Source of the DNA: a virus
Length of the DNA: 43,652 bases
Virus genome (UHGV): UHGV-0201380
Direction: 5' to 3' (one strand)
Shown: positions 73-36,995 of the stretch, one piece after another
Layout: each line of letters opens with the position of its first letter
Position numbering within the stretch: position 1 is the first letter of the stretch
The notes under the pieces: generated by a model
The model's input: only the letters and a program-made list of their open reading frames with translations
What the model was told of the DNA's origin: nothing
The model's database searches: none
Translations under genes and position numbers: made by a program

Positions 73-2490
73 TCATTCTACCTTCTCCTTACTGTACATA
101 CTCGTACCCATCTCAGCCTCTGCTGGGAACGGGACCTCACCAATGATGCCGTAGTTAGGCCAGAGCTGGTGAATACGCTTAGGTGCATCCTCCATGCACT
201 GCTTAACCAGCAGGCTCGCCTCACGTCCAACCTCCGGGTTGGCGCTGTCCAGATACAACGCATCGTGCACGTTCGTAATCAGGCACACCTGATTGTCGAA
301 CCAGTCACGGGCCAGGAGTGCACGCAGAACCATACCGGCGGCTACCGCCATCAGGAAGAATGCTTCCCCCTGGCACCAGTAGTTAGCCATCTCTGTTTCC
401 TTGTAGTCCATTACCTTCTGCTTACGCTGCCCAGGCACAACCTCTTTCCACTGCTCTTTCTGACGGAAACTGTAGCGGGCACCGGCTGGGCTGGTCCACG
501 TCCCAATGCGGTAGATTCGGTAGCTGCCGTCGTCAGCCTGCTCCCGGTACATGCGCCCCTCCGCACCGGTACGTTCTACCTCTTCCTTGACAACAGCGCG
601 GAAGCCAATTGTTTGCGGGAACAGCGCAGCCTCGTTGTCCAAGAAAGCCTGTGCAAATTCCACCGTACATCCAGTAGCAAACGCAATCCCCTTAGCCGTA
701 GCGCCATACTGGGCTGCAAAGCTAGGAGCCTTAATACCTGTACGCATTGCCTTCCAAAGCGGATGCAGCTCGTGCTTCTTGTTGTGGCAGCGCTCATATA
801 CTTCTTCATACGGTAATCCCTCGCGGAAAGCTAGGCGGTAACAGTGCATATCCGTACCACTCTGCAGCAGTCCCAGCAGTTTCTTGTCACCCGTGTGTAC
901 ACAGGACATAACCACTTCCAGTGCCGAGTAGTCAACCTCAGTGATACGTCCGTTGTCCCCGAATCTACTGGTGAACACCTGCTTCACCTTGGATTTAGCC
1001 ACACCGTCGCCATCCTCATCCGGGCGGGGTAGGTTCTGCAGGTTCGGGTTAGAGCTACTCAAGCGCCCGGTTACGGTGGCGCAAGTATTCAGCCGGTGGT
1101 GAATGATGCCGGAACCATCGGGACGCTCCGGGATTACATACTGCAGCATCCCCTTCCGCTCTTTTACATTACCTCCTGCGTCCAGTACTTCTCGCAAATA
1201 GTAAGTGCCGGTATCCTTCTCCAGCGCCGCCAGTTCGTTCACCAACTTACAGAACTCGAACCCTTGGCGAGCCAGCGCCTCCATTGCATCAGTGCTGGTG
1301 CTATACACAGGGGTGCCATCCTGCAGGGTGCGCGCCTGTCGGAACTCCCCGCGCTCTGCGTACTTCTCCCGGATAACTTCCGGAAGCTCCTGGATGTTCA
1401 CTAGGCCCGGGCAGAAGTAAAGGTCGTCTTCCCATTTAAGTTTCTCTTCCTCGGTATCGAGGCGGAATACTTTAGGGAGCCCCTTGTTCTTACCCGCACG
1501 ATATGTCACTACACGCCACCATCCGCCTTCCGTTTGAAGTTCTTGCATGTGCGTGTCGTGTACAGGTATATAGGTGTGCGCACCATCTTCGTCCTCGTAC
1601 TTATAGTAGTCGGCCTTGACGTACTGCGGAGGGTCATAGGGGACCTTCTTGCGGTACTTTATAGGCCCGCCGTACACCAGTGCAGACATATGAAAGTCCG
1701 ACCCGAAATTGAAGTCCAGCGTCTCCGGCAAGTCCTTCGGGATGTACTGCTGCAGTTCCTGCTTAATCTCACGGATGCGCTGCTCCTGCTCCTCCTGGTT
1801 CTTGCGTGCAATTGGCATATTCACGAACAGGCCGAACCACTCGCAGTACGCCCAAGCTAGCAAGGCATCCATACGTTCCCACACGTACTGCATCTGATTG
1901 CGCTGGGCGAACGTAGCGCACTGGCCGTAGAAGCACAGGGCCGTGTTCGGGATGTCCCCGTTAACCAGGTAGTCATGCAGCAGTATCGGGTCGATCTGGG
2001 AGGTTAACACACCCTGCTCCCATAGAATCTTAACCCCGTCTACTTTGTGCGTACCACCGTACTTAGGAGCCGTCTCGTCCAGAGACGGATACATGCTCTG
2101 AAAGTCCGAGGCGATGTATTCCCCGTGCATTGTGCAGAACACCCTGCCACCGCGCTTGAGGAAGGCCTCAAACTGCTGCCGCTGGTACGTGAGAAACCAA
2201 GAAATCTCATAGGCTGCGTTGTGCGCAACAATAAGCCAGCAATCCTCGGGGATATGAAACCACCGGCAGCCTTCTGCTGCACTGTTTCCCGCCAAGAAAT
2301 CAGCTCTTGAATTGAAGCGCACCGATTGAGTCGCGCCAACAGTGGTAGTACCGTCAGCCTGTGTCGTGTCGATACGCCATGCGGACTCAACAACATAGTT
2401 GTCAGGGCAGTATGGGCTTGCTTTAGAGCCGTAATATTCATGGTTCTCCGTCTCCAGGTCAAGGTGCATTATGCTGGTTGTCATTTCCAC
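73..2490 (-). CDS. Family A DNA polymerase (T7 gp5-like) with N-terminal 3'-5' exonuclease domain
   Basis: 805-aa track ORF. N-terminal MHLDLETEN resembles the exonuclease DxE motif; C-terminal VHDALYLD resembles Pol A motif C. Track start codon is GTG; an ATG two codons in (about 2484) follows a GGAGGG Shine-Dalgarno and is the likelier start. Position after primase and helicase matches phiKMV-like synteny. Confidence 0.9.
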   Translation of the reverse strand: MEMTTSIMHLDLETENHEYYGSKASPYCPDNYVVESAWRIDTTQADGTTTVGATQSVRFNSRADFLAGNSAAEGCRWFHIPEDCWLIVAHNAAYEISWFLTYQRQQFEAFLKRGGRVFCTMHGEYIASDFQSMYPSLDETAPKYGGTHKVDGVKILWEQGVLTSQIDPILLHDYLVNGDIPNTALCFYGQCATFAQRNQMQYVWERMDALLAWAYCEWFGLFVNMPIARKNQEEQEQRIREIKQELQQYIPKDLPETLDFNFGSDFHMSALVYGGPIKYRKKVPYDPPQYVKADYYKYEDEDGAHTYIPVHDTHMQELQTEGGWWRVVTYRAGKNKGLPKVFRLDTEEEKLKWEDDLYFCPGLVNIQELPEVIREKYAERGEFRQARTLQDGTPVYSTSTDAMEALARQGFEFCKLVNELAALEKDTGTYYLREVLDAGGNVKERKGMLQYVIPERPDGSGIIHHRLNTCATVTGRLSSSNPNLQNLPRPDEDGDGVAKSKVKQVFTSRFGDNGRITEVDYSALEVVMSCVHTGDKKLLGLLQSGTDMHCYRLAFREGLPYEEVYERCHNKKHELHPLWKAMRTGIKAPSFAAQYGATAKGIAFATGCTVEFAQAFLDNEAALFPQTIGFRAVVKEEVERTGAEGRMYREQADDGSYRIYRIGTWTSPAGARYSFRQKEQWKEVVPGQRKQKVMDYKETEMANYWCQGEAFFLMAVAAGMVLRALLARDWFDNQVCLITNVHDALYLDSANPEVGREASLLVKQCMEDAPKRIHQLWPNYGIIGEVPFPAEAEMGTSMYSKEKVE

Positions 2491-2688: not shown

Positions 2689-3969
2689 TCACCGGTTAAT
2701 CTGGCCCTCGTCAAAGCGGCAACGACCCGGCTCGAATCCCACCTCGAATTGCAGTAGCGACTCTTTACCAGACAGTGCCATCTTGTTCTTCGGAGTACTG
2801 ATACCACGGACGTTTTGCATGTGCGGCTGCTCGTTCCTGTCCAAGCATCCCATCATAATCGCCAAGTCCAAGGCACCCTGTACACCAATCTTGCTCTGCT
2901 TCATAGCGGTGAGCGGCGGGAACAACATGTTGTAACCTTCGAGTGAAAGCTGCATAGTCCCTACGATAGCGCAGTCGTTCTCGCACCCAAGGATGCGCAG
3001 CTCCTGCCATTTCGCCTCTAGGTTCTGGTGCTCACTCTCCATAGTACCGCCACGGATATTCGCCACCATATCAATGATGATTACCGCGGGGCGCATCTCC
3101 TCCATGAGCGTGGATATCTGCGCCATCGTCAAGGAGTGCGCAGCCTTAACGCGAATCCGGTCAGCCCTGCCTACTTTCTTGAGGTAGGCTGGCACGAACT
3201 CTTGCTTACTGTGCCGGTCCTTAATCTCCGCCAGAGTCCAGTGCAGCGCCGCTTGATATACCCTCGGCACTGTACGCGTCGCCGGACCCTCGTTAACCAG
3301 CCAGAGAATCGGGCGGTCCCCGTATACTTCCGGCTGCTGCTGCATCTGCTCAGCAAAGTCCACAGCAATAGCAGCAAGCAGGCTAGTTTTACCAGAGTCC
3401 ACAGGAGCAGCCACTGCGATGCAGTCCCCGCCACGTAGACCTCGGATGTTGCTAGCGAGTTGCTCGAACACGCCCAGTTTAAGACCGCCGCTCTCATCAG
3501 TCGCGGCAAGTATCTCGTCAACACTACCGCTCTCCCATTCAAGCAGCGAATCATGCACCGCAGCGCCATCACCGTACTTGCGCTGTAGGTGCTTCATTTC
3601 CAGCAGGTAATCAATCTCCTCGCCGTCTTGATAGCGCTGCGTCAGCGCTGCTACCTCCCCGCTGTAGGCCAGCTCGTTCAGGGTCTGGACAATCCCCACC
3701 ACAGAATCCTGTGGCACGGCTTGTACTCCCCGCATAAGCTCGTCCATGATTACCCGCTCTTCCCGGGACAGGTGCCCCGCCCGGAGGTTTAGCATGCTCT
3801 GCATTGCATCCCACTGAACCTCCTGGTGCTCCGGGTACGTGTTCCAGTACAACCCCACCCAGTCTAGTAGGTTAGCTGTGTCCGGCGCTAGCATGGATTT
3901 GGGTATCTGTTCACGCAGTCGGTTCCATACCTTCTGCGTGCACATTGCCTTAACTACTATTAGGTCCAA
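2689..3969 (-). CDS. DnaB-like replicative DNA helicase (T7 gp4 helicase-domain homolog), encoded separately from primase
   Basis: 426-aa ORF. Walker A AAPVDSGKTSLL and Walker B-like PAVIIIDMV. Start is TTG, preceded by a strong AAGGAGG Shine-Dalgarno 5 nt upstream. Confidence 0.85.
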   Translation of the reverse strand: MDLIVVKAMCTQKVWNRLREQIPKSMLAPDTANLLDWVGLYWNTYPEHQEVQWDAMQSMLNLRAGHLSREERVIMDELMRGVQAVPQDSVVGIVQTLNELAYSGEVAALTQRYQDGEEIDYLLEMKHLQRKYGDGAAVHDSLLEWESGSVDEILAATDESGGLKLGVFEQLASNIRGLRGGDCIAVAAPVDSGKTSLLAAIAVDFAEQMQQQPEVYGDRPILWLVNEGPATRTVPRVYQAALHWTLAEIKDRHSKQEFVPAYLKKVGRADRIRVKAAHSLTMAQISTLMEEMRPAVIIIDMVANIRGGTMESEHQNLEAKWQELRILGCENDCAIVGTMQLSLEGYNMLFPPLTAMKQSKIGVQGALDLAIMMGCLDRNEQPHMQNVRGISTPKNKMALSGKESLLQFEVGFEPGRCRFDEGQINR

Positions 3970-4946: not shown

Positions 4947-5398
4947 TACTGAATCTCTCGCTTAACTTTCATAGCCATTCGACGAATGTCATGTGCCAAC
5001 TGCAGGGCTGAATCGGGGCTCATATTAATACCAATCTCTCGCTCTGCCCGGGTGCTGCCTTTTCTAGGCACTATTCCGATGTATAGTAGTCCTTCGTTAG
5101 TCTCGCTGTCCTTTTCTAATACCAGCCGCTGGTCGTTTCCTGGGTCTCGTTTAGTGTTTAAATATGCTACACTAGACGGAACCGGTGGCAGCTCGTCCGC
5201 CTCCTCGATTAGCTGCCAGAAGTCGGCAGAGCCGCCATAGATATCCCCGGCATAATGAATCCCTGCGCCTTCGGTTAGCTTGATGTCTATATAGAGGCCA
5301 GGCCCCTTAGTGACTATCTCGCCGCGCACGGTCTTACCTTCAATCTTATTGATGCGCTGAACCTTATCACCTACTTTAAAAAGTTTAGACATAATCAA
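4946..5398 (-). CDS. Hypothetical protein
   Basis: 150-aa ORF tightly packed between the peptidase-like gene and primase, with 4-nt overlaps at both ends. No motif recognised. Confidence 0.5.
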   Translation of the reverse strand: MIMSKLFKVGDKVQRINKIEGKTVRGEIVTKGPGLYIDIKLTEGAGIHYAGDIYGGSADFWQLIEEADELPPVPSSVAYLNTKRDPGNDQRLVLEKDSETNEGLLYIGIVPRKGSTRAEREIGINMSPDSALQLAHDIRRMAMKVKREIQ

Positions 5399-6456
5399 CC
5401 CTCCACAATATTATCGTATCCGCCCCAGTCTTCTACGACTCGGGTGCCTAGTTCAATCAGTTCTTCTTTAAAGCCGTAATCGGAGAACACCATTATGTAC
5501 TCCGCCGCCTTCTCTGGATTCTCCTGTACCCAGCTAACCAGTTGTTGTTTAGAAAGCTGCGATACTTCCCGGAACGCGGCCAGTAACTGCGGGTCCTCGT
5601 CCGGCGGCATATCCCACGGCTGCCGTAAACTGAGCGTCGATGCAGCGAGCCACTGGCATAGGTCTGGCTCTGCTACTGCCGGGTCCCGCTCAATAGGGAG
5701 GTGCGAGAACGTGCCGTCTTGTAGTACCCGCTCAAGCACCTGGCCCAGTATGTTCAGGTCCAGCACCTCATCCGGGGTGTGCTCGTGCATGTACCCTACA
5801 CCGACGTTGGTGCACTCAGGAATGATGCCAACGAACTCAGCCGAGTCAGTATAAACACCCTTCTGCAAGTGCTGCTCCGTGCGTCCCAGGCGCTCTGCTA
5901 GGGTCTTGGCAAAGGTGTCAGAGCAGCAGCGCATATACCTTTGATGCGTAATGATACCGTCGCCGCGGCGGTCGAAGCTAATCATCGCCTTGACCCCAGT
6001 CCAAAATCCAGAGTCATCCTTGACCGATGCAGCGCTACCCTCGCAGCCTACCTCTTCATCCACGAAGAAGCAGTAGCGTCCGTGCACGCCGCGCCGCAGC
6101 ATCTCCAGCATCAGGTAGATACCGGCGCCGCAGTCGGCGCCCAAGCAGTCAGCTTGTTGCGGATTCTTTACGAACAGCACGCCCTTGTTAGTGCAGCCGA
6201 CGTCCGGCGCAGCGCTGGTTGGTCGTGCCACTGTGTCGAGATGAGACGTAAACGCTACGTCACTTTGCTCTGAGTCCCCCACCAGCACGAAGTAGTTCCC
6301 GTGCTTGTCCTTTACGTAGTGCATACCACTACCCAGCGCCTGTAGCGACTGCATAAGCAGCGGCTCGAACCACTTAGTGCTACCCCAGCTAGGCCGGTGC
6401 GTTTGCAGTATCTGCAAGAGCAGCTGCATATCAATCCCGTGCGGATTCAAGAACAT
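5395..6456 (-). CDS. Predicted dinuclear-zinc peptidase-fold protein (M20/M28/M42-like motif pattern)
   Basis: 353 aa. Ordered motifs SHLDTV (HxD), GADCGAG (D), VDEEVGCEG (EE), GYMHEHTPDE (H) match the metal-ligand pattern of M20/M28/M42 peptidases. ATG is preceded by GAGGAGG and overlaps the stop of the upstream acidic protein. Function inferred from motif pattern only. Confidence 0.55.
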   Translation of the reverse strand: MFLNPHGIDMQLLLQILQTHRPSWGSTKWFEPLLMQSLQALGSGMHYVKDKHGNYFVLVGDSEQSDVAFTSHLDTVARPTSAAPDVGCTNKGVLFVKNPQQADCLGADCGAGIYLMLEMLRRGVHGRYCFFVDEEVGCEGSAASVKDDSGFWTGVKAMISFDRRGDGIITHQRYMRCCSDTFAKTLAERLGRTEQHLQKGVYTDSAEFVGIIPECTNVGVGYMHEHTPDEVLDLNILGQVLERVLQDGTFSHLPIERDPAVAEPDLCQWLAASTLSLRQPWDMPPDEDPQLLAAFREVSQLSKQQLVSWVQENPEKAAEYIMVFSDYGFKEELIELGTRVVEDWGGYDNIVEG

Positions 6457-8138
6457 TAAGCTGCCTCCTCTGCTTCTTCTTCATCTTCATCGTTGCCCAG
6501 GTACTTCTCTCCCAAGCAATCAGCTGCATGCTCAGTGAGAATTAACCCGTGCACTGGGTGTTCTTCTGCGTGCTCAATAAGCACTTGCCGGTCCTGTGCA
6601 AACACCAGTTCCTCTTGGTCGTGCACTACACCCTCTACTTCGCAGCGCTCTATGTCCTCGTCGTATACATAGGCGTCGTGGTAATCAGACCAGGTGCAGC
6701 TCCAGCGATTATGCAGACCATCACGCCCAACTACGTACACAAAATCCCCTTCTTCTACGCAGCCGTCGCAGACCATATCACCATCTGCGGTCTCCTGCAT
6801 GTCATCTACAGAGTAGCGACATTCACAGCAGCAGCACCGAGCAGACTCAGTGCCTACGTAGATGTATCCTTCTGAGTCTTGTGCCTCGTACTCATAAGCA
6901 TCACGGATTACAAAGGCATCATCCCCATACTCATCTACGCCGCACTGGCTGCTATCTAGGTATGGCATCAGCACTGCGCCGTTGTATGTTGGGTGCGGTA
7001 TTCGCGCCAGCATTACCCCTTCGAGACATTCAATGTTTTTGGTGTACCCATGCCCCCGCAGGATTGCATCCGCAGCGTTGCCGTAAGCGCGGACGTACTC
7101 GTTAGTTTCTGTGTTAACGATTGCCCGTGCCTGCACTTCGAAATCGTCGCCGAACAGCTCCCCGGTGTACTGGATGAACAGGCGCAGCCCATTATCCGGC
7201 AACCCGTGGCTGGTGGTAGCGTACGTCCGCACAGAGCTATGCTCAAATGAGTACCCGCTCATGCAGCTACCCGGGCCATTCTCGTAGGCGTCGTACCATT
7301 CCTGCTCGGTCTTGCACAGGTACGTTGTAGGGTCTACGTTCATAGCCTTGAGGTCTTCGATAGCATCGCGGAAGTCCACACCATTTCCGTAGTAGTTAGC
7401 GAGCCACTTACCTACGCGCATCTCTACGCAGCGGTACTCAGTAACTGCTGCGAAGTCCTTGTGCATCCGCGGCTGCCCCAGCATCACGATAGGTTCGCCG
7501 TTGCGGAAACCAAAGCCCAAAGGCACGGCGAATCTAGACACTACGAAGCCGTGCAACTTCATGAGCAGCGCAGCTAAGTTGCCATCGCGGGTGTGGCGGC
7601 CGTAATCGTAGCCAGTGTATAAGCGGCGCTGCTGCTCTTCTGGTGCAAGCATGATGCGCTCAAATAACTGCACGGCCTGCTTGTGCACCTTGTAACCTGT
7701 GAATTCTTCGACGCAAGCAACTACGCGCTCAACCACTACATCCTCGCCCTCATAGAAGTCGCGGCGGCGTTCCCAGAACTTGCTGTCTATGGTGATTCGC
7801 ACCGGTTCAAAGAGTTCGCAGAAAGTTCCGGACCGGTACAGGTCCACCTTTTGCAACGGGCCGAGCGTCATCGTTGATTCGCGATACTCTGGGTGCAGTG
7901 CCCCGCCTATAGTCACCTCTAAGCCTGGAGTGTGCGCACTGACAGTGCGGAGACCCATAAGCACCTGCAGCGGACCCTCAGTGTGGGGATGGTCCTCCCC
8001 TTGCATTTGCAAGTCCTGGAACGGGGTCCAGTAATCACCGCTGGAATACATTGATTCTTTAATCGGCAGTGCGTTTGCACCTTCCGGTAACACTACTTTC
8101 CATTCGATAGGTGCTGTGTTAGTTTCTTGCATTTTCAT
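6456..8138 (-). CDS. Large early/middle protein of unknown function with Cys cluster and polyacidic C-terminal tail
   Basis: Track ORF is 6456..8426 (656 aa), but its 5' end overlaps the upstream 114-aa gene. ATG codons at about 8138 and 8132 follow a GGGAG Shine-Dalgarno, giving about 560 aa. Contains CCCCECRYSVDDMQETADGDMVCDGC and ends DEDEEEAEEAA. Confidence 0.6.
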   Translation of the reverse strand: MKMQETNTAPIEWKVVLPEGANALPIKESMYSSGDYWTPFQDLQMQGEDHPHTEGPLQVLMGLRTVSAHTPGLEVTIGGALHPEYRESTMTLGPLQKVDLYRSGTFCELFEPVRITIDSKFWERRRDFYEGEDVVVERVVACVEEFTGYKVHKQAVQLFERIMLAPEEQQRRLYTGYDYGRHTRDGNLAALLMKLHGFVVSRFAVPLGFGFRNGEPIVMLGQPRMHKDFAAVTEYRCVEMRVGKWLANYYGNGVDFRDAIEDLKAMNVDPTTYLCKTEQEWYDAYENGPGSCMSGYSFEHSSVRTYATTSHGLPDNGLRLFIQYTGELFGDDFEVQARAIVNTETNEYVRAYGNAADAILRGHGYTKNIECLEGVMLARIPHPTYNGAVLMPYLDSSQCGVDEYGDDAFVIRDAYEYEAQDSEGYIYVGTESARCCCCECRYSVDDMQETADGDMVCDGCVEEGDFVYVVGRDGLHNRWSCTWSDYHDAYVYDEDIERCEVEGVVHDQEELVFAQDRQVLIEHAEEHPVHGLILTEHAADCLGEKYLGNDEDEEEAEEAA

Positions 8139-8178
8139 TTGCTCCCGAGTTAATAGAACTTCGTCATGCACTAAGAGT

Positions 8179-8523
8179 TCAGCGTGCGTACCACGCGGAG
8201 AGTTGTTGCTGCTTATAATAGGCGCGGACTGCGGCTCTAAATTGCTTAAAAGCTCCGCGGTATCCATTCCGCCGTAGTGCTGCAACCACATCGAATGCAA
8301 TGTGCTCTTGCAGCTTCCGCGCGGCAGACTCAGTGTACTCTCGATAGGTTGTGAGAACAGTGCCAATATCCTCTTTTCTAACTCGGAGTAATCGACGCTC
8401 AACTGGCACGATTTGCTTGAGTTCATTAGGAACCTCTTTGAATGTTTCCCAAGTGCAACCGCACTTGCCCTGCGTTTCCAGCAGACGCCAGCACAGCAGC
8501 GCTGTTTCGTCTACTGTGAGCAT
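8179..8523 (-). CDS. Hypothetical early protein
   Basis: 114-aa ORF; ATG preceded by AAGGA with about 6-nt spacing. No recognisable domain. Confidence 0.55.
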   Translation of the reverse strand: MLTVDETALLCWRLLETQGKCGCTWETFKEVPNELKQIVPVERRLLRVRKEDIGTVLTTYREYTESAARKLQEHIAFDVVAALRRNGYRGAFKQFRAAVRAYYKQQQLSAWYAR

Positions 8524-8729
8524 GCGCTATCCTTGAATACCACGTTGCGGGCCACAAGGGTGCTACAACTTAGCATTACCACCCCGCCAACTGTGTGACT
8601 GGACGGCAACCACAGTCTAGTCTCCTCTGCATAGAATTCTGCGAGGGCGTGCAGTGGACTAAATAGAGGTACCCGGTAAAGAAACCCATTAGGGCGCTTA
8701 TATACGTCATAAATGTCCTGCTTGCTCAT
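8511..8729 (-). CDS. Hypothetical early protein
   Basis: 72-aa track ORF in the early gene string, overlapping the next gene by 13 nt. A further 58-aa ORF (about 8730..8905, below the track cutoff) appears coupled upstream. Confidence 0.4.
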   Translation of the reverse strand: MSKQDIYDVYKRPNGFLYRVPLFSPLHALAEFYAEETRLWLPSSHTVGGVVMLSCSTLVARNVVFKDSACSQ

Positions 8730-8914
8730 ACTACACCCCGCACATTAAACCGGAAGCAGTAGCCGCGCAGGGTCATACCCAGGCGCTTTGCTTGTTTCTC
8801 ATAGTGCTGGCGCAGCGCTGCCTTCGCGTTGTACTCCCGCGCCAGCCCGTCGATTGTTGGTTGCTGCTTACGCATCAGCAGCGTTTCAGGATTCTTTCCG
8901 TGCATGCCCCCACC

Positions 8915-9178
8915 TCAAATTTCGTTATTGCTCTTACCATCCACCGTGAGCGTTACCGCAGCGTCCTGGTACTGCTCCTGCACCGCCGCAAGGATACGTG
9001 CGCCCAGCTCTTTGCAACCACCCTCGGGGTCTTCAAATAGGTCGTACTCAGGGCGCGGCTGCGGCTCCTGCGTTGCCGGTTGCTGCAACTGCACAGTGCA
9101 GTATGGGATTGGGTTGTTTATGTCGTTGCCCAGCACCAGCATAGCGCTGGTCACAATGATGTTGAATACATTAACCAT
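8915..9178 (-). CDS. Hypothetical early protein with hydrophobic N-terminus and acidic C-terminal half
   Basis: Track ORF 8915..9208. An internal ATG (MVNVFNIIVTSAMLVLG...) follows GGAGA and overlaps the upstream stop, so about 87 aa. Confidence 0.5.
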   Translation of the reverse strand: MVNVFNIIVTSAMLVLGNDINNPIPYCTVQLQQPATQEPQPRPEYDLFEDPEGGCKELGARILAAVQEQYQDAAVTLTVDGKSNNEI

Positions 9179-9404
9179 AAAGTTGTCTCCAGTCGTTGAT
9201 AATGCCAAGATTCACGGCGTCCAGCACAGTGCGGGCAGCCATTTCGGTGTAGGTATCCACAAATTCTAAAGGGGATTCCTGATTAGTGTCTTTGTCAGAG
9301 AATATGACCACAGTGTAGTTGTATTCTGCGTATACCCGATTGCACCACACGGGCCAGAGTTCATGGCCCGGATAGACCAGTATTGCTTTCATATGAAACC
9401 CCAT
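9171..9404 (-). CDS. Hypothetical early protein
   Basis: 77-aa track ORF; the likelier start is the ATG about 12 nt in (MKAILVYPGHELW), which follows a G-rich Shine-Dalgarno. The conserved 30-bp hairpin element lies just upstream. Confidence 0.5.
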   Translation of the reverse strand: MGFHMKAILVYPGHELWPVWCNRVYAEYNYTVVIFSDKDTNQESPLEFVDTYTEMAARTVLDAVNLGIINDWRQLYG

Positions 9405-9418
9405 ACGCCAGTTGCATT

Positions 9419-9448
9419 CACATAGCGCCCCGCAGGACGCTATAGGCT
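9419..9448 (-). promoter_or_regulatory. Conserved early-region hairpin element, copy 2
   Basis: 30-bp element, 27 of 30 identical to the copy at 10135..10164. Contains a 6-bp inverted repeat ATAGCG/CGCTAT whose stem positions covary with copy 1 (ATAGCA/TGCTAT). Lies 15-45 nt upstream of an early gene start. Confidence 0.4.
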
Positions 9449-9521
9449 TGCTACTAGAGATATTCGCCCGCCACTACAAATAACAGCACCACCGCCGTTA
9501 TGATAACCATGAATTCTACGC

Positions 9522-10097
9522 TCATGCCGCCGCCTTCAAAGTTGCGTCCAGTACAGCGCGTACATCCACGCCCTGCGATACCAGCATATACACGAGGTCA
9601 GCGTCGCTTACACCAGTCTCTTTTGCCTTCTTGATAGCGTTTTTAACGCGCCCCAGCGCTTGCAAGCGCACTGCATCGGCATCCAGCGCGTCATTCTTTA
9701 CCTGCTCCGCTTCGGCAGCGTACAGGGCCATACAGGAGCTATAGAAGCTGGCTACAATTACTTCGCGCTCCTGCTTGTCAGCTTGTTTATAGTCCAGACG
9801 CATAGTGTCCAGTTCGATGCCCAGCTTCTCAGCAGACGCATAGCACTTCTTCGCGTTGAATTCGTATTTGCCGGACTCCTTGTTGAACTTGATAGGCAGC
9901 AGCGTACGCAGCACCATATCGAAGTCCGCGGCATCGCTGCGCTGCATATCCATAGCCCAGGAAACGTTGCTGCTAATCAGGCCGTGGAAGAGCGCGCTAA
10001 TAGTGATGTTGCGCTTTGCTTCCACTACGTCGCCCAGCGCTTTACGAATGCTGCCCGCAGCGGTGAGCTTGAATACTTTACCAGTTGAATGGGTCAT
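9522..10097 (-). CDS. Hypothetical early protein (first sizeable early gene)
   Basis: 191-aa ORF. ATG is preceded by AAAGAGGTG; it lies downstream of the putative host-promoter region and the conserved hairpin element. No recognisable domain. Confidence 0.6.
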   Translation of the reverse strand: MTHSTGKVFKLTAAGSIRKALGDVVEAKRNITISALFHGLISSNVSWAMDMQRSDAADFDMVLRTLLPIKFNKESGKYEFNAKKCYASAEKLGIELDTMRLDYKQADKQEREVIVASFYSSCMALYAAEAEQVKNDALDADAVRLQALGRVKNAIKKAKETGVSDADLVYMLVSQGVDVRAVLDATLKAAA

Positions 10098-10134
10098 AAT
10101 GCACCTCTTTGATTGGTTGTTTAGGTAATTACTT

Positions 10135-10164
10135 CACATAGCACCCCGTAGGATGCTATAGGCT
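10135..10164 (-). promoter_or_regulatory. Conserved early-region hairpin element, copy 1
   Basis: Same 30-bp element as 9419..9448, here with stem ATAGCA/TGCTAT. Sits about 40 nt upstream of the 191-aa early gene. Confidence 0.4.
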
Positions 10165-10168
10165 GTAA

Positions 10169-10366
10169 TTATCGACCAAATTGGGAGTTAACAGTAGGCC
10201 ATCCAGATGGCTGCCTGCTACTGCCCTTTTGTTTTTGCTTTCCCCTCACCCTGTGCTCACTGCTCAACCCTTGTTTGCTAGGCTTCACAGTAAGCGGCAC
10301 GTCGTCGGTGGGATTCAGTGATAATTGCATATTCCGCCGTAATGCTAAACGCTTTGATTTGCGCAT
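10169..10366 (-). CDS. Hypothetical small highly basic protein
   Basis: 65-aa track ORF rich in Arg/Lys (MRKSKRLALRR ... KQKQKG). ATG is preceded by GAGAGGTAAG. It is the first ORF downstream of the candidate sigma70-like promoters. Confidence 0.35.
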   Translation of the reverse strand: MRKSKRLALRRNMQLSLNPTDDVPLTVKPSKQGLSSEHRVRGKQKQKGSSRQPSGWPTVNSQFGR

Positions 10367-10716
10367 ACTCTTACCTCTCAGAGAACATAATCTAGCGCAA
10401 CCTTGTTACTGCTGCGCTATGTTATATGCTCTTTGCGGGATACACTCCGCGCCTTGTTCCCTCGATTCAGAGGAGCGAGCTGCTCTCGCCTCGACAGTGT
10501 GGTTTGTCTCAGAACCCCGGTGATAACGTCCGGCACGTTTACTCTTTAACTGATTGTCTAGGGGTGGGTCGTCAACGTACCAGTCAAGGTACTGGGCCTC
10601 CCCGCAAACCAGCTTACTACTAAACCTTTAAGAGGTCATTTTTAACGTCTAGCCTAATCCGACGGGACACACATCCTTGCGCCCTAGAGTGGTTATCCTT
10701 GCCTTGTTCGCTATCT

Positions 10717-10745
10717 AAGTTACTCAGTGAATCAGAACTTGTCAA
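10717..10745 (-). promoter_or_regulatory. Candidate host sigma70-type early promoter
   Basis: Minus strand reads TTGACA - 17 nt - TAACTT. The -35 is perfect, the -10 is weak. Located in the lower-GC non-coding region upstream of the early genes. Confidence 0.25.
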
Positions 10746-10785
10746 GCGTTTATTTCTTACTGCCTTACTGCTTACTTCGGGATTC

Positions 10786-10814
10786 AATCTAGCTTATGTT
10801 CTTCGCGGTGTCAA
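10786..10814 (-). promoter_or_regulatory. Candidate host sigma70-type early promoter
   Basis: Minus strand reads TTGACA - 17 nt - TAGATT, in the same non-coding early leader. Confidence 0.3.
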
Positions 10815-10966: not shown

Positions 10967-11383
10967 TCACTGGGAGCAAAAAGAGTAAGCAGACCCCCAA
11001 AGGTCTGCGTGCAGTAAACTATTGTAGTCCCCATAAGTCACGTCGAACTCTCGCCAGTTAGTATCGTACTCAGGACTAGCCAATAACTCATCCTTTGTGA
11101 AGCATCTCCCTTCCTGAATCTGTGCTAAGTGTATGGCCCGGTGAGTGTCAGCGCTAACCAGTATCAGGTTATTGAAGTCACAGTTAAGGCGGTTACTGTC
11201 ACAGTGATGTACGTGATAGCCAGAACCGTAGCTAGTGATTCCCAGAGCATCCATAACCACGGCCCTATGCAGCGCCACAGTCTTATAGTCTCTCTTACCT
11301 CGCTTATTCACATACTCAGGCCCAGCACCATTAATCACTGGATAACCTTCCTTATCAACCACAATCTTAAATGTTCTAGCCAC
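10967..11383 (-). CDS. HNH homing endonuclease
   Basis: 138 aa with HVHHCDSNRLNCDFNNLILVSADTHRAIH (HNH core). Free-standing, between the terminus repeat region and the early promoters. A GC hairpin plus T-run overlaps its last codons (about 10975..11008). Confidence 0.8.
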   Translation of the reverse strand: MARTFKIVVDKEGYPVINGAGPEYVNKRGKRDYKTVALHRAVVMDALGITSYGSGYHVHHCDSNRLNCDFNNLILVSADTHRAIHLAQIQEGRCFTKDELLASPEYDTNWREFDVTYGDYNSLLHADLWGSAYSFCSQ

Positions 11384-12205: not shown

Positions 12206-12667
12206 TCAGATATACACCTGCCCCGGGGTGAAGGCCTTGTGTTGCTCTTGACGTTTCTCTAGTACCCACTTGCAGATAACTTCGTAGGAGCTGTGCTTCT
12301 TCATGTAACGCTTACCGTCCTTCCAGAACTCCCCGCGCCAGCAGGTGCCAGTGTAGTATACACCCCTAGGATGTTCCCGCTTAGACCTGCGTGCGTTACA
12401 GTTGTTTTCGCTAACCGTAGCTAAGCGCAGGTTCTCTAATCTGTTGTCACCGGGGTTTTGGTTGATGTGGTCCACCACATATCCGTCTGGAATAGGCCCG
12501 TTGTGTAGTTCCCAGATGAGGCGGTGTGCCTGTATCTTTCTACCAGATACCTGTACCACCCAGTAGCCACGAGTGTTGCGGGTACCCGCTGGAGCACCGG
12601 CGCGCCTACCCTTGAGCCACACCAAGCAGCTAGGGGATGTTGTGTCATATTTGATGTTCATAGACAT
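12206..12667 (-). CDS. HNH homing endonuclease (HNH plus AP2-like DNA-binding region)
   Basis: 153 aa with HRLIWELHNGPIPDGYVVDHINQNPGDNRLENLRLATVSENNCNA. Last gene before the terminus region. The upstream intergenic region carries GTATCTCTA direct repeats. Confidence 0.85.
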   Translation of the reverse strand: MSMNIKYDTTSPSCLVWLKGRRAGAPAGTRNTRGYWVVQVSGRKIQAHRLIWELHNGPIPDGYVVDHINQNPGDNRLENLRLATVSENNCNARRSKREHPRGVYYTGTCWRGEFWKDGKRYMKKHSSYEVICKWVLEKRQEQHKAFTPGQVYI

Positions 12668-34526: not shown

Positions 34527-36995
34527 TTAGCAGAAGAAGAACGGGGATTCTAGCACTTGCCGGATGTCCAAAGTGCCCACTTCCGGCATGTCCAGGTCCG
34601 TCAAGTCTGCCCCGGCTGCTGCTGCTGCGCGAGTAATGTCGCCAAGCAGGTCATTCTCTTCATACAGGCGCACAAACTGCTCACGGATGTGCCTATGCAT
34701 AGCGTCAACGTCAGCTGCGTGAGTAGCCAGCGAGTCGTGAATAGGCACAATATCCAGACCCTCCGCAGCGCAGAGCACCATCATCAAGTGCGTACTGTCC
34801 AGGCTATGCACAAAGTTCGGGGCAATCCCGGAGGCTGCCTTGCGCTTGTTGCAAGTTTTGAAGTCCCGGTTGTGTACCAGTACCGCTGATAGGTTCATGC
34901 AGTCAATACGTACGCGCACTTCTTCACGCTGCGTGTAGCGGTTCATTACGAGCCCACCCAGCGGCGTATACCACTGCAGATGCTGGCTTGCCGGTACACG
35001 CCTAGCGAGGTTCTGCAAGTACCCCATAACTGCGGCTGCGGCTGGGTTTGCCTCCTCGATAGCAGTGCGCATACGCGGAGCCAGGTAGCATGACAAGTTC
35101 CACAGACTGTTAGTCTCAGTACCCTCGTACCCCTCAGCGCAAGCGCCTTCGAAGATGTAGTCGCTGCAGCTGCGCACAGTGGCGCTGTAGAAGTAGGTCA
35201 TACTAGGGCGCTTGGTCATGCTGCGGGTGATTTCGTTCTCTCTCCAGTACGTGCTCTGGATAACGAAATCCTCCTTGTCCAGGTCCAGTATCACCTTCTC
35301 GTCCGTACGGCGCTTCACGTCCATGTACAGGTCCGCTTTCTTATCATTACCCTCCCAGTACAGGTTCGTCAAGCGTCCGCCCACAGGGTCTCTCAGGAGC
35401 GCTGAGAGATGCTGTCCACCTGAGTTTGTAGCGTCCATAGCAACTGGGATTCGGCTAATATGCTCTTCTGGGCATCCAGAACGAACCGCATTAACCAAGT
35501 CGATAGCGGCGGCCAGCAGGCACCAGGGGCTATCCGCAGAGGAAAAAGCAGGGGCATCAAGAGGAGAATCCGCGAGCCTCTCAATCTCTGCATAGTTCGC
35601 ATCAACCCAAGCTGCACGGTCTTCGAATAGGGTTTTGTCATAACCAAAGCAAGTGGCGACGTGCACTTTAAGCCAGAAAAGTCCGCGCTCTCCCAGAGGC
35701 TTGCCACGTCCGAATTCAAGAAGGGCTTTCTGCAAATCAGAACCTTGGGGATGCAGCGAGGACTTGAAGTACAGGCGGTAGCGCCAGTCCACACAAGTCG
35801 GGAAGTACAGGGCTTTCTCATCTTTGAATTCCTCCGCCATTTCCAGCGTGGTCAACAGGCTGCGTAGTTGTGACACACGCTTACGGTCTGCGCTGTACCA
35901 TAGGGACATGCGCGTCTTCCACTCACCGAAGCGGTCCAGTTCTTCTTCGGTGTAGTTCTCTTTTGGTACTCCATCCAAGTACCACTCCGGTTTAGGCTCT
36001 GGTACTGAGCGGGGCATGCCCACCCCAATACCCAGGGCCCGTGCTTCTTGCACCAGTTCCAGTATGCGCTTATTAATACGGTATGGGGTTTCCTGCGCCT
36101 TATTAAGCGCCTTTTTGATGCCGTCCGCGGACTTGAATGCTTCTGCTACTTCACGGAGTCGCGCGCGGTCGATGTGCGAGTTGTGATAGGTCCCGCGATT
36201 GTCGATGGGGGTAAGGTACCCGCCATCCCACATAGTGGTGTGCTGTACCGGTGGCACCAGCATAGGCGGCTTCATGGTTACGGTATCAGCGGACTCTACC
36301 AGTTTCTGGAAGGCCTCCATAACATCGTCAGCCGGGTAGAGCATGCTCAGGTTCCCACTACAGTTCTTCCATTGGAACAGGCCAGTCTCAAACACCGCGG
36401 CACATAGCAGCCGACCTACTGAGATATTCTGGGAGTTGGTCCATGGCTCGTGCCCATAGTGCACGTTCTCAGCACTGGCCCGCAGCGTACGCAGGATGTG
36501 CGTGGGAGACTTGGTCTTACGCTCCGTAAGGTACTCGTACACACGGTCCATGTACGCCGGAGCCACGTTGCGTAACTGCAGGGCCAGCAGTTCCGATTGT
36601 ACGTTCCGGCCCAGCGCGGACATTACCGCCTGTGCAGTCTGGCGGCGGCTAGCGGACTCGCCAGGAGCTACGCTAAATGCCTCAAACATTGTGCATAGGC
36701 TCAGGGTGGTCAGGACATCCAAGGGGACTAAGCGCAGGAACCGGCGGTACTTACCGCCAATGCCCGGGGCTTTTACATTTCGCATCTCATCGATAGCGGC
36801 GGCGGCCACCTCATATGCCGAGGTGAGCATACGCTGCGTCATCGGCAGGTTCATAATCCCACCGTTCTGCAATGCGTCCGTAATCAGCTTACGTGCCCGC
36901 TCGATTCCGCGAATCTTATAGGTCTCTTCAAGCTCCAGCTGGCGTTTCACCAGTGCTTCCTCTGGTACTACAACCGTATTCAGGGCGCTAATCAT
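34527..36995 (-). CDS. Single-subunit DNA-directed RNA polymerase (T7 RNAP family), located next to the structural module
   Basis: 822 aa. Motif A-like PVAMDATNSGGQH, motif B-like RSMTKRPSMTYFYSAT, motif C-like PIHDSLATHAAD. AAGGAGA Shine-Dalgarno. Placement directly upstream of portal is the phiKMV-like hallmark. Confidence 0.95.
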   Translation of the reverse strand: MISALNTVVVPEEALVKRQLELEETYKIRGIERARKLITDALQNGGIMNLPMTQRMLTSAYEVAAAAIDEMRNVKAPGIGGKYRRFLRLVPLDVLTTLSLCTMFEAFSVAPGESASRRQTAQAVMSALGRNVQSELLALQLRNVAPAYMDRVYEYLTERKTKSPTHILRTLRASAENVHYGHEPWTNSQNISVGRLLCAAVFETGLFQWKNCSGNLSMLYPADDVMEAFQKLVESADTVTMKPPMLVPPVQHTTMWDGGYLTPIDNRGTYHNSHIDRARLREVAEAFKSADGIKKALNKAQETPYRINKRILELVQEARALGIGVGMPRSVPEPKPEWYLDGVPKENYTEEELDRFGEWKTRMSLWYSADRKRVSQLRSLLTTLEMAEEFKDEKALYFPTCVDWRYRLYFKSSLHPQGSDLQKALLEFGRGKPLGERGLFWLKVHVATCFGYDKTLFEDRAAWVDANYAEIERLADSPLDAPAFSSADSPWCLLAAAIDLVNAVRSGCPEEHISRIPVAMDATNSGGQHLSALLRDPVGGRLTNLYWEGNDKKADLYMDVKRRTDEKVILDLDKEDFVIQSTYWRENEITRSMTKRPSMTYFYSATVRSCSDYIFEGACAEGYEGTETNSLWNLSCYLAPRMRTAIEEANPAAAAVMGYLQNLARRVPASQHLQWYTPLGGLVMNRYTQREEVRVRIDCMNLSAVLVHNRDFKTCNKRKAASGIAPNFVHSLDSTHLMMVLCAAEGLDIVPIHDSLATHAADVDAMHRHIREQFVRLYEENDLLGDITRAAAAAGADLTDLDMPEVGTLDIRQVLESPFFFC

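Follow-up and report, generated by a model that had tools for sequence, protein, structure and literature searches.

Which functions does a KP34-like phage express first in its host? The question is raised by positions 8179 to 10366 of the virus genome UHGV-0201380, a stretch of 43,652 nucleotides (nt) to which we refer, at its full length, as the window. The interval harbors a block of small open reading frames (ORFs) next to the gene of a large acidic protein, and a first interpretation made from the letters of the sequence (the sequence-only reading) considered these ORFs candidate host-takeover or anti-defence genes of the kind found in the first-injected region of T7-like phages. With a probability of roughly 0.55, we read the interval as the host-transcribed early operon of a KP34-like podophage that encodes small binding proteins and whose transcript is divided by stem-loops. 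As a finding the block is ordinary: hundreds of public genomes already contain it, with its genes annotated as hypothetical proteins. The analysis yields a corrected gene boundary, a map of core and variable genes, and a reading of a published promoter motif as RNA structure. In phage therapy against Klebsiella, KP34-like phages rank among the most used candidates, and their first-expressed genes are all functionally blank. In the following, genes are designated by the length of their products in amino acids (aa), such as o191 for the gene encoding 191 aa; coordinates are listed in Table 1.

By its sequence, the window belongs to Drulisvirus, the KP34-like genus of Slopekvirinae. About 250 GenBank phage records match the interval, nearly all of them from Klebsiella phages of this genus; 135 of the 250 matching records cover at least 80% of the interval, with a DNA identity of 85–92% among the leading matches listed. 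KP34 and other Drulisvirus (AttikonH4, VLC5, KpV41, SU503) share the same genes in the same order at 85–92% DNA identity, together with the same host promoter and the same two conserved motifs, and the gene order is also the same in henu-LMZ. By DNA similarity and gene order the block thus belongs to the early gene module of Drulisvirus. Throughout the annotated relatives, its genes are labelled "hypothetical protein".

The assignment to the early region, already proposed by the sequence-only reading, agrees with three observations. In annotated relatives the block adjoins the direct terminal repeat at the left genome end, a position that is transferred to the window by synteny with AttikonH4. 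Upstream of the block lies a predicted, near-consensus sigma-70-type promoter (TTGACA, 17 nt, TAGATT; 10 of 12 positions in a consensus scan) that is identical to TTGACACCGCGAAGAACATAAGCTAGATT, the sequence listed as "host promoter" of KP34-group phages (PMC4411677). The gene of the single-subunit RNA polymerase is located after the DNA-metabolism genes; the window is a permuted whole genome with every gene on the minus strand, and in genome order the polymerase gene lies approximately 19 kb downstream of the early block. The layout is of the phiKMV/KP34 type, with the phage polymerase gene far from the early genes. Because of the terminal-repeat synteny, the upstream sigma-70 promoter and the distant RNA polymerase gene, the block is supported as an early, host-transcribed operon. 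The host sigma-70 RNA polymerase would initiate at strong promoters near the left genome end and transcribe eight short, translationally coupled genes; no intrinsic terminators were seen inside the block. Between the promoter and the first gene lies a leader of approximately 420 nt (10367..10785, minus strand), which has no convincing ORF and also holds a second published promoter-like sequence, TTGACAAGTTCTGATTCACTGAGTAACTT.

All ORFs that had been listed for the block exist on the minus strand, and we count eight genes. Their tight packing, ribosome-binding sites and translational coupling are borne out. Shine-Dalgarno motifs precede the ATG of o191 (AGAGGTG, 5 nt ahead), o59 (GAGGTG, 6 nt ahead) and o114 (AAGGA, 6 nt ahead). 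Stop and start codons overlap as ATGA at the o191/o23 and o59/o72 junctions, and longer overlaps connect o77 with o87 (8 nt) and o72 with o114 (13 nt). For comparison we used 39 related loci from viral contigs and 2 from GenBank, hence 41 relatives and, together with the window, 42 sequences. Across the 41 related loci, the third codon position is the most variable in every ORF with enough copies. The median ratio of nonsynonymous to synonymous substitution rates (dN/dS) is 0.06 for o191, 0.08 for o87, 0.10 for o65 (computed on 11 variants), 0.14 for both o73 and o114, 0.18 for o59 and 0.35 for o72. Because of the codon-position variability, dN/dS values of 0.06–0.35, and the ribosome-binding sites and coupling, the ORFs of the block with enough copies are real genes and not chance frames. 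With respect to charge, the block is mixed. It had been described as containing several acidic products or products with hydrophobic N-termini, which holds for o73 (isoelectric point, pI, 4.45) and o87 (pI 4.05, with a hydrophobic N-terminus) and for these two only; o65 (pI 12.0), o59 (pI 10.4) and o114 (pI 9.6) are strongly basic.

Table 1. Coordinates of the genes, stem-loops and promoter of the early block and of other features of the window.
Feature	Position	Strand	Remarks
o65	10366..10169	-	65 aa; first early gene
o191	10097..9522	-	191 aa; core early gene
o23	9525..9454	-	23 aa; candidate gene of a hydrophobic micropeptide
o73/77	9392 or 9404..9171	-	73 aa from ATG 9392, 77 aa from ATG 9404
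o87	9178..8915	-	87 aa
o59	8905..8726	-	59 aa
o72	8729..8511	-	72 aa
o114	8523..8179	-	114 aa
Stem-loop copy 1	10118..10177, core motif 10162..10133	-	between o65 and o191; -20.7 kcal/mol, z -5.0
Stem-loop copy 2	9402..9461, core motif 9446..9417	-	between o23 and o73; -26.3 kcal/mol, z -3.9
Predicted sigma-70-type early promoter	10786..10814	-	TTGACA, 17 nt, TAGATT
Large acidic protein, corrected start	8132..6456	-	558 aa, pI 4.5; not 656 aa from 8426
DNA polymerase	2490..73	-	
Helicase	3969..2689	-	
Single-subunit RNA polymerase	36995..34527	-	RNA_pol domain; after DNA-metabolism genes
HNH endonuclease gene	10967..11383	-	Pfam HNH_3
HNH endonuclease gene	12206..12667	-	Pfam HNH_3

That some of the ORFs, notably o114 and the tiny hydrophobic o23, are nevertheless chance reading frames is highly improbable. 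In the case of o114, the suspicion arises from an annotated acidic ORF of 656 aa (start at 8426, in the ORF list and in many GenBank records) with which it shares 248 nt, and from its omission from some GenBank records. However, the o114 frame is open and comprises exactly 114 codons in 42 of 42 sequences, whereas the competing 656-aa frame is interrupted by stops in two relatives (L024 and L004). Within the overlap, variability at the third codon position of the o114 frame is 0.72, compared to 0.34 and 0.21 at the other two, and dN/dS is 0.15 in the o114 frame as against 1.27 in the 656-aa frame. Homologues with 30–38% identity occur in other genera: Pectobacterium phage CB5 has one, Vibrio phage VP93 encodes one as the C-terminal part of gp5, and others are present in phages of Enterobacter and E. 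coli. Intactness, substitution pattern and distant homologues together refute a chance frame, and o114 is a genuine gene.

The same data relocate the start of the large acidic protein. Its frame shows a normal coding pattern downstream of 8179, and every sequence inspected has the methionine at 8132 (within 'KMQ'), ahead of which lies GGGAG. Because the extension of the 656-aa frame has stops in relatives and a dN/dS of 1.27, and because Met 8132 is conserved, the large acidic protein starts at 8132. The arrangement given by the sequence-only reading, with o114 among the genes of the block, is therefore correct. The long form in databases is over-extended, and the analysis amends a gene start that recurs in public annotations. 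A start approximately 98 codons too early, across o114 (8132..8426, minus strand), is found for example in AttikonH4_16, henu-LMZ KP5 and PHROG 6980. In CB5 and VP93, the o114 homologue again immediately precedes the genes of a large protein and a peptidase. The order of o114, large protein and M28-like peptidase (5395..8523 in the window) is kept in CB5 (L042, 3492..6548) and in VP93 (L043, 1830..5351), which suggests that the three constitute a conserved module.

The tiny hydrophobic ORF exists as well, but it comprises 23 codons from the ATG at 9525 and not, as first read, 18 codons from 9510. The encoded peptide, MSVEFMVIITAVVLLFVVAGEYL, reaches a Kyte-Doolittle maximum of 3.2 over 15 residues, and its start codon overlaps the stop codon of o191 as ATGA. 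In favor of a chance frame, o23 is missing from most relatives and is too short for testing. Against it, the window and 6 of the 41 related loci have hydrophobic peptides of 23–25 aa at this position, in three distinct sequence types and with the ATGA coupling kept. Most relatives have at the position of o23 a 43-aa ORF that is unrelated to it, or a longer version of that ORF with 74 aa and an additional cysteine-rich N-terminus. In two relatives (L009 and L036) the hydrophobic peptide coexists with a 38-aa form of the 43-aa ORF family and is not replaced by it. Because both co-occur in these loci, the micropeptide and the 43-aa ORF family are, on comparative grounds, most simply regarded as separate genes. 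The comparative data support o23 as a gene, but do not amount to proof.

A gene-content map of the 42 genomes divides the block into a core of six genes (o191, o73, o87, o59, o72 and o114, each present in 37–42 of 42 genomes) and three variable slots. Slot 1 is occupied by the first gene of the operon, which is o65 in 13 of 42 genomes and a 71-aa alternative (for example L004, 1567..1782) in 29 of 42. The N-terminal halves of the two are unrelated, and both share the basic C-terminal tail RGKxKxKGSSxxPxGW..QFG. The N-terminus of o65 is rich in Arg and Lys and includes the arginine-rich stretch MRKSKRLALRRN; the protein corresponds to phrog_32970 (unknown function). Slot 2 extends from o191 to the second stem-loop and contains the micropeptide, the 43/74-aa ORF, or optional genes of 57, 88 and 74–78 aa. 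Slot 3, between o87 and o59, harbors a DUF987 gene (Pfam PF06174) in ten genomes (for example L001, 3542..3781) and is empty in the window. The window hence differs from other Drulisvirus by a 65-aa instead of a 71-aa first gene, by the 23-aa micropeptide in place of the 43- or 74-aa ORF, and by the absence of the DUF987 gene and of the optional 57-, 88- and 74–78-aa genes.

Among the core genes, o72 is hypervariable in sequence. The median pairwise protein identity of o72 is 39% (minimum 20%), compared to 90% for the flanking o59 and 88% for o114 in the same genomes, the identity range of its neighbours being 88–94%. For the same genome pairs, dN is 0.68 in o72 versus 0.04–0.07 in the neighbours; dS is approximately 1.5 and often saturated. 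The gene-wide dN/dS is 0.35 and exceeds 1 in no pair. That is, o72 shows extreme divergence, and positive selection is not demonstrated. Both ends of the protein (phrog_7916, unknown function) are conserved and its middle is variable. The pattern looks like many old alleles that are kept and shuffled among otherwise near-identical genomes, as would be expected of genes for host-specific interactions. An identical entry in nr is labelled GABARAP/ubiquitin-like. The label could not be reproduced: hhalign returns a probability of 0.9%, and the family profile has no match in PDB.

The most conserved gene of the block is o191, with homologues in Shigella, Pectobacterium, Erwinia, Vibrio and Aeromonas phages; its product could be assigned to no fold. 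A search of its profile against 1.84 billion representative proteins returned relatives of the same length, fragments and a few long repeat proteins, and no informative domain fusions. The long repeat proteins are retrieved because of a short ankyrin-like C-terminal stretch: the last 17–24 residues (approximately 159–182; window 9522..9600, AKETGVSDADLVYMLVSQGVDVRA) resemble one ankyrin-repeat consensus, which is too short for membership in the ankyrin family. Likewise, a reading of the invariant LFHG...SDAADFD as a minimal nucleotidyltransferase motif was rejected, as it has no support from families or PDB and the model predicts helices there. The o73/77 protein is found only in Klebsiella, Escherichia and Shigella phages of the group; its C-terminal half is conserved, and the profile of phrog_7657 begins at residue 5. 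For o87, the profile of phrog_7036 begins at the ATG at 9178. One GenBank record labels it 'putative secreted protein', and o87 may be membrane-anchored or exported, because its N-terminus has a hydrophobic segment that is conserved and two of its cysteines are invariant, the alignment showing PYC and GC motifs without variation. The o59 protein is a member of the Pfam family DUF7267 (PF23929; 89.7 bits versus a cut-off of 27, E = 1.6e-25), a family without known function, to which the homologue of Pectobacterium phage CB5 aligns with 105.5 bits. Apart from Pectobacterium phages, o59 is also present in Dickeya, Salmonella, Enterobacter and Cronobacter phages.

A second layer of conservation concerns RNA. 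The 30-nt motif AGCCTATAGCGTCCTACGGGGCGCTATGTGAA occurs exactly twice in the 43.6-kb window, both times in the early operon, with the two copies bracketing o191; a search of the whole genome with a covariance model returns the same two copies and no others. The motif was published as 'putative phage promoter' of Kp34likevirus, with exactly this sequence and at the same two positions, by Eriksson et al. (2015, PMC4411677), who noted its absence ahead of late genes and suggested that it might instead be a nick site. Our data describe it differently: the motif behaves as a conserved, covarying RNA stem-loop of approximately 17 pairs on the mRNA-sense strand. Its upper stem consists of 10 pairs, is capped by a tetraloop and is followed by small internal loops; two of the 10 are G.U pairs that show no or almost no variation. 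The lower stem has 6–9 pairs, whose sequence varies between copies and phages while the complementarity is kept. In sense orientation the two copies fold with the energies given in Table 1, compared to -18.2 and -15.6 kcal/mol in antisense. In the 41 relatives the covariance model finds 82 copies, all of them gene-sense. Within the alignment 97.6% of cells are paired, 9 of 17 pairs are changed on both sides, and the covariation score is 0.42 versus 0.14 in shuffles. Some of this covariation reflects the fitting of the alignment to the model, and some of it differences between the two paralogous copies. A pairing of this kind, covarying flanks, mRNA-sense orientation and restriction to the early operon are all features that a promoter does not need. 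Moreover, a promoter of a T7-like single-subunit RNA polymerase would be expected ahead of middle and late genes, which the phage polymerase transcribes, and there are just two copies, both early.

The element is also found in other genera. In Pectobacterium phage CB5 it is located directly upstream of the o191 homologue (L042, 1505..1563), and in Pectobacterium phage PPWS1 two copies (L047, 1827..1885 and 2714..2778) bracket the o191 homologue and one small gene, the second copy having a compensatory change from U-A to C-G in the otherwise invariant stem. The element was not found in Vibrio phage VP93 or Erwinia phage Micant, and a search of the region against Rfam returned no family. The RNase III sites of T7 early mRNA have a similar size and shape. 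For the stem-loops here, a role in processing or stabilising the RNA is most likely, and the two copies would split the transcript in three: o65, o191 together with o23, and o73 through o114. A processing site, a protein-binding operator, an antitermination-type site and a promoter with coincident structure are options among which the data cannot decide. What the analysis provides is a testable RNA-structure reading of a motif that is carried in the literature as a promoter.

Searches for function gave consistently negative results. The proteins had been described as lacking recognisable catalytic motifs, and indeed the family searches yield no catalytic or other annotated domain, DUF7267 excepted. 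In Pfam (E up to 1), the match of o59 to DUF7267 is the only one; neither an anti-restriction family of the Ocr, ArdA or KlcA type nor another annotated anti-defence family was found. Matches of the block proteins to PHROG are confined to families of 'unknown function'. PADLOC gave no match for the eight proteins (E up to 1), a search of the block ORFs against NCBIfam gave nothing credible, and family searches with distant homologues from other genera added nothing further. Hits in PDB sequences, obtained with single sequences and profiles (LapG, KaiC, NtrX, ERCC1 and an antibody loop), are weak and non-significant and were treated as chance. Two AlphaFold2 models, with a predicted local distance difference test (pLDDT) of 68 and 59 (the latter for o114), are too poor or featureless for fold assignment. 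Homology and structure, the latter for these two products, assign no function, and host takeover and anti-defence stay candidate roles. Literature searches on early proteins of Drulisvirus and KP34, toxicity screens, anti-defence, transcriptomes and DUF7267 returned nothing relevant beyond PMC4411677.

The known systems that come closest are the early regions of T7 and of phiKMV-like phages. With the class I region of T7 the block shares, on sequence evidence, host sigma-70 promoters at the first-entering end and compact small genes on the same strand. T7 early mRNA is cut by RNase III at stem-loops between cistrons; here there are two intercistronic stem-loops, covarying and with approximately 17 pairs interrupted by small internal loops. 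Unlike in T7, the phage RNA polymerase gene is located outside the early region, and no ORF of the block resembles Ocr, gp0.4, gp0.7 or gp2 in sequence or detectable fold. In Pseudomonas phages of the phiKMV/LUZ19 type, small early proteins inhibit host functions. The present genome has the same architecture and likewise encodes small early proteins without domains, but homologues of the block ORFs were not found outside the group of Klebsiella, Pectobacterium, Vibrio, Erwinia and Aeromonas phages.

As to biochemical function, we infer that the block products most likely act as small binding proteins. The six core genes would probably hit conserved targets, either host machinery or early nucleic-acid transactions of the phage, with the strongly basic o59 and o114 as candidate nucleic-acid binders; o191, o59 and o114 appear as ancient core genes. 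Functions in an arms race with the host, anti-defence or exclusion for example, would most likely be limited to the hypervariable o72 and the swappable slots, here holding o65 and the putative membrane micropeptide o23; these are the places where host-specific functions of this kind are likely. Several points weigh against this interpretation. Binding is argued from small size and lack of domains, and neither homology to a characterised protein, nor a confident structure, nor literature on function was found, as detailed above. The conservation of o191, o59 and o114 fits an internal role in the phage (replication, transcription switching, DNA entry) equally well. With regard to the RNA element, besides the mixed origin of the covariation counts, a primary sequence as sharply conserved as this one would not usually be seen in a plain RNase III site and suggests a sequence-specific reader. 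A broader claim, that the whole block is an anti-defence island directed against restriction-modification, cyclic-oligonucleotide-based anti-phage signalling (CBASS), Thoeris or RecBCD-type nucleases, similar to Ocr or gp5.9 of T7, is in our view improbable. It draws on the location in the first-entering, host-transcribed part of the genome, on small and domain-free products of which two are acidic, on the hypervariability of o72, on the turnover of gene content at three slots, and on the DUF987 gene between o87 and o59 in some relatives, a family that in E. coli is found in prophage islands alongside antirestriction genes. However, no product matches Ocr, ArdA, KlcA or an annotated anti-defence family of PHROG or Pfam, and six of the eight genes are core, five of them with a dN/dS of 0.06–0.19. 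Likewise, Pectobacterium and Vibrio phages retain o191 and o114, and Pectobacterium, Dickeya and Salmonella phages retain o59. Because such core genes are kept in phages of hosts with differing defence repertoires, it is unlikely that most block genes are strain-specific anti-defence factors. Since three products (o65, o59, o114) are strongly basic and only o73 and o87 acidic, a block of DNA mimics does not fit either. An anti-defence reading is reasonable only for o72 and the variable slots with o65 and o23.

A different explanation, which we consider doubtful, is that the conserved core (o191, o59, o114 and perhaps o65) has tasks in the phage's own programme and is not directed against the host, for example as regulators of the early-to-middle switch, as factors that bind the stem-loop RNA (N/nut-like or as translational operator), or as accessory factors of the large acidic protein and the M28-like peptidase. 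Consistent with this are the basic nature of o65, o59 and o114, the arginine-rich stretch with which o65 starts, the position of o114 right ahead of the large protein and the peptidase, kept in CB5 and VP93, and a stem-loop whose sequence is conserved beyond the needs of pairing and travels with o191 across subfamilies. In addition, the host polymerase has to traverse approximately 17–18 kb, from 10814 round the window end to 36995, to reach the phage polymerase gene. The idea is purely inferential, however: searches detected no domain for binding RNA or DNA, neither VP93 nor Micant has the stem-loop despite o191 homologues there, and intrinsic terminators were not seen inside the block. Compared with both alternatives, we prefer the operon of small binding proteins with conserved targets, in which arms-race functions would be confined to few positions. 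As a tentative extension, the promoter motif might be an RNA regulatory structure that is read by a factor and brackets o191 in Slopekvirinae and Corkvirinae, and o72 a new determinant of host specificity or anti-defence. The reader of the stem-loop could be RNase III, excising a stable o191 message; by analogy to lambda N on its nut site it could also be the arginine-rich o65, or it could be o191 acting on an operator.

Upstream of the early promoters, the region presumed to hold the genome end lies between two HNH endonuclease genes (Table 1). In some relatives, HNH genes turn up sporadically within the early block itself.

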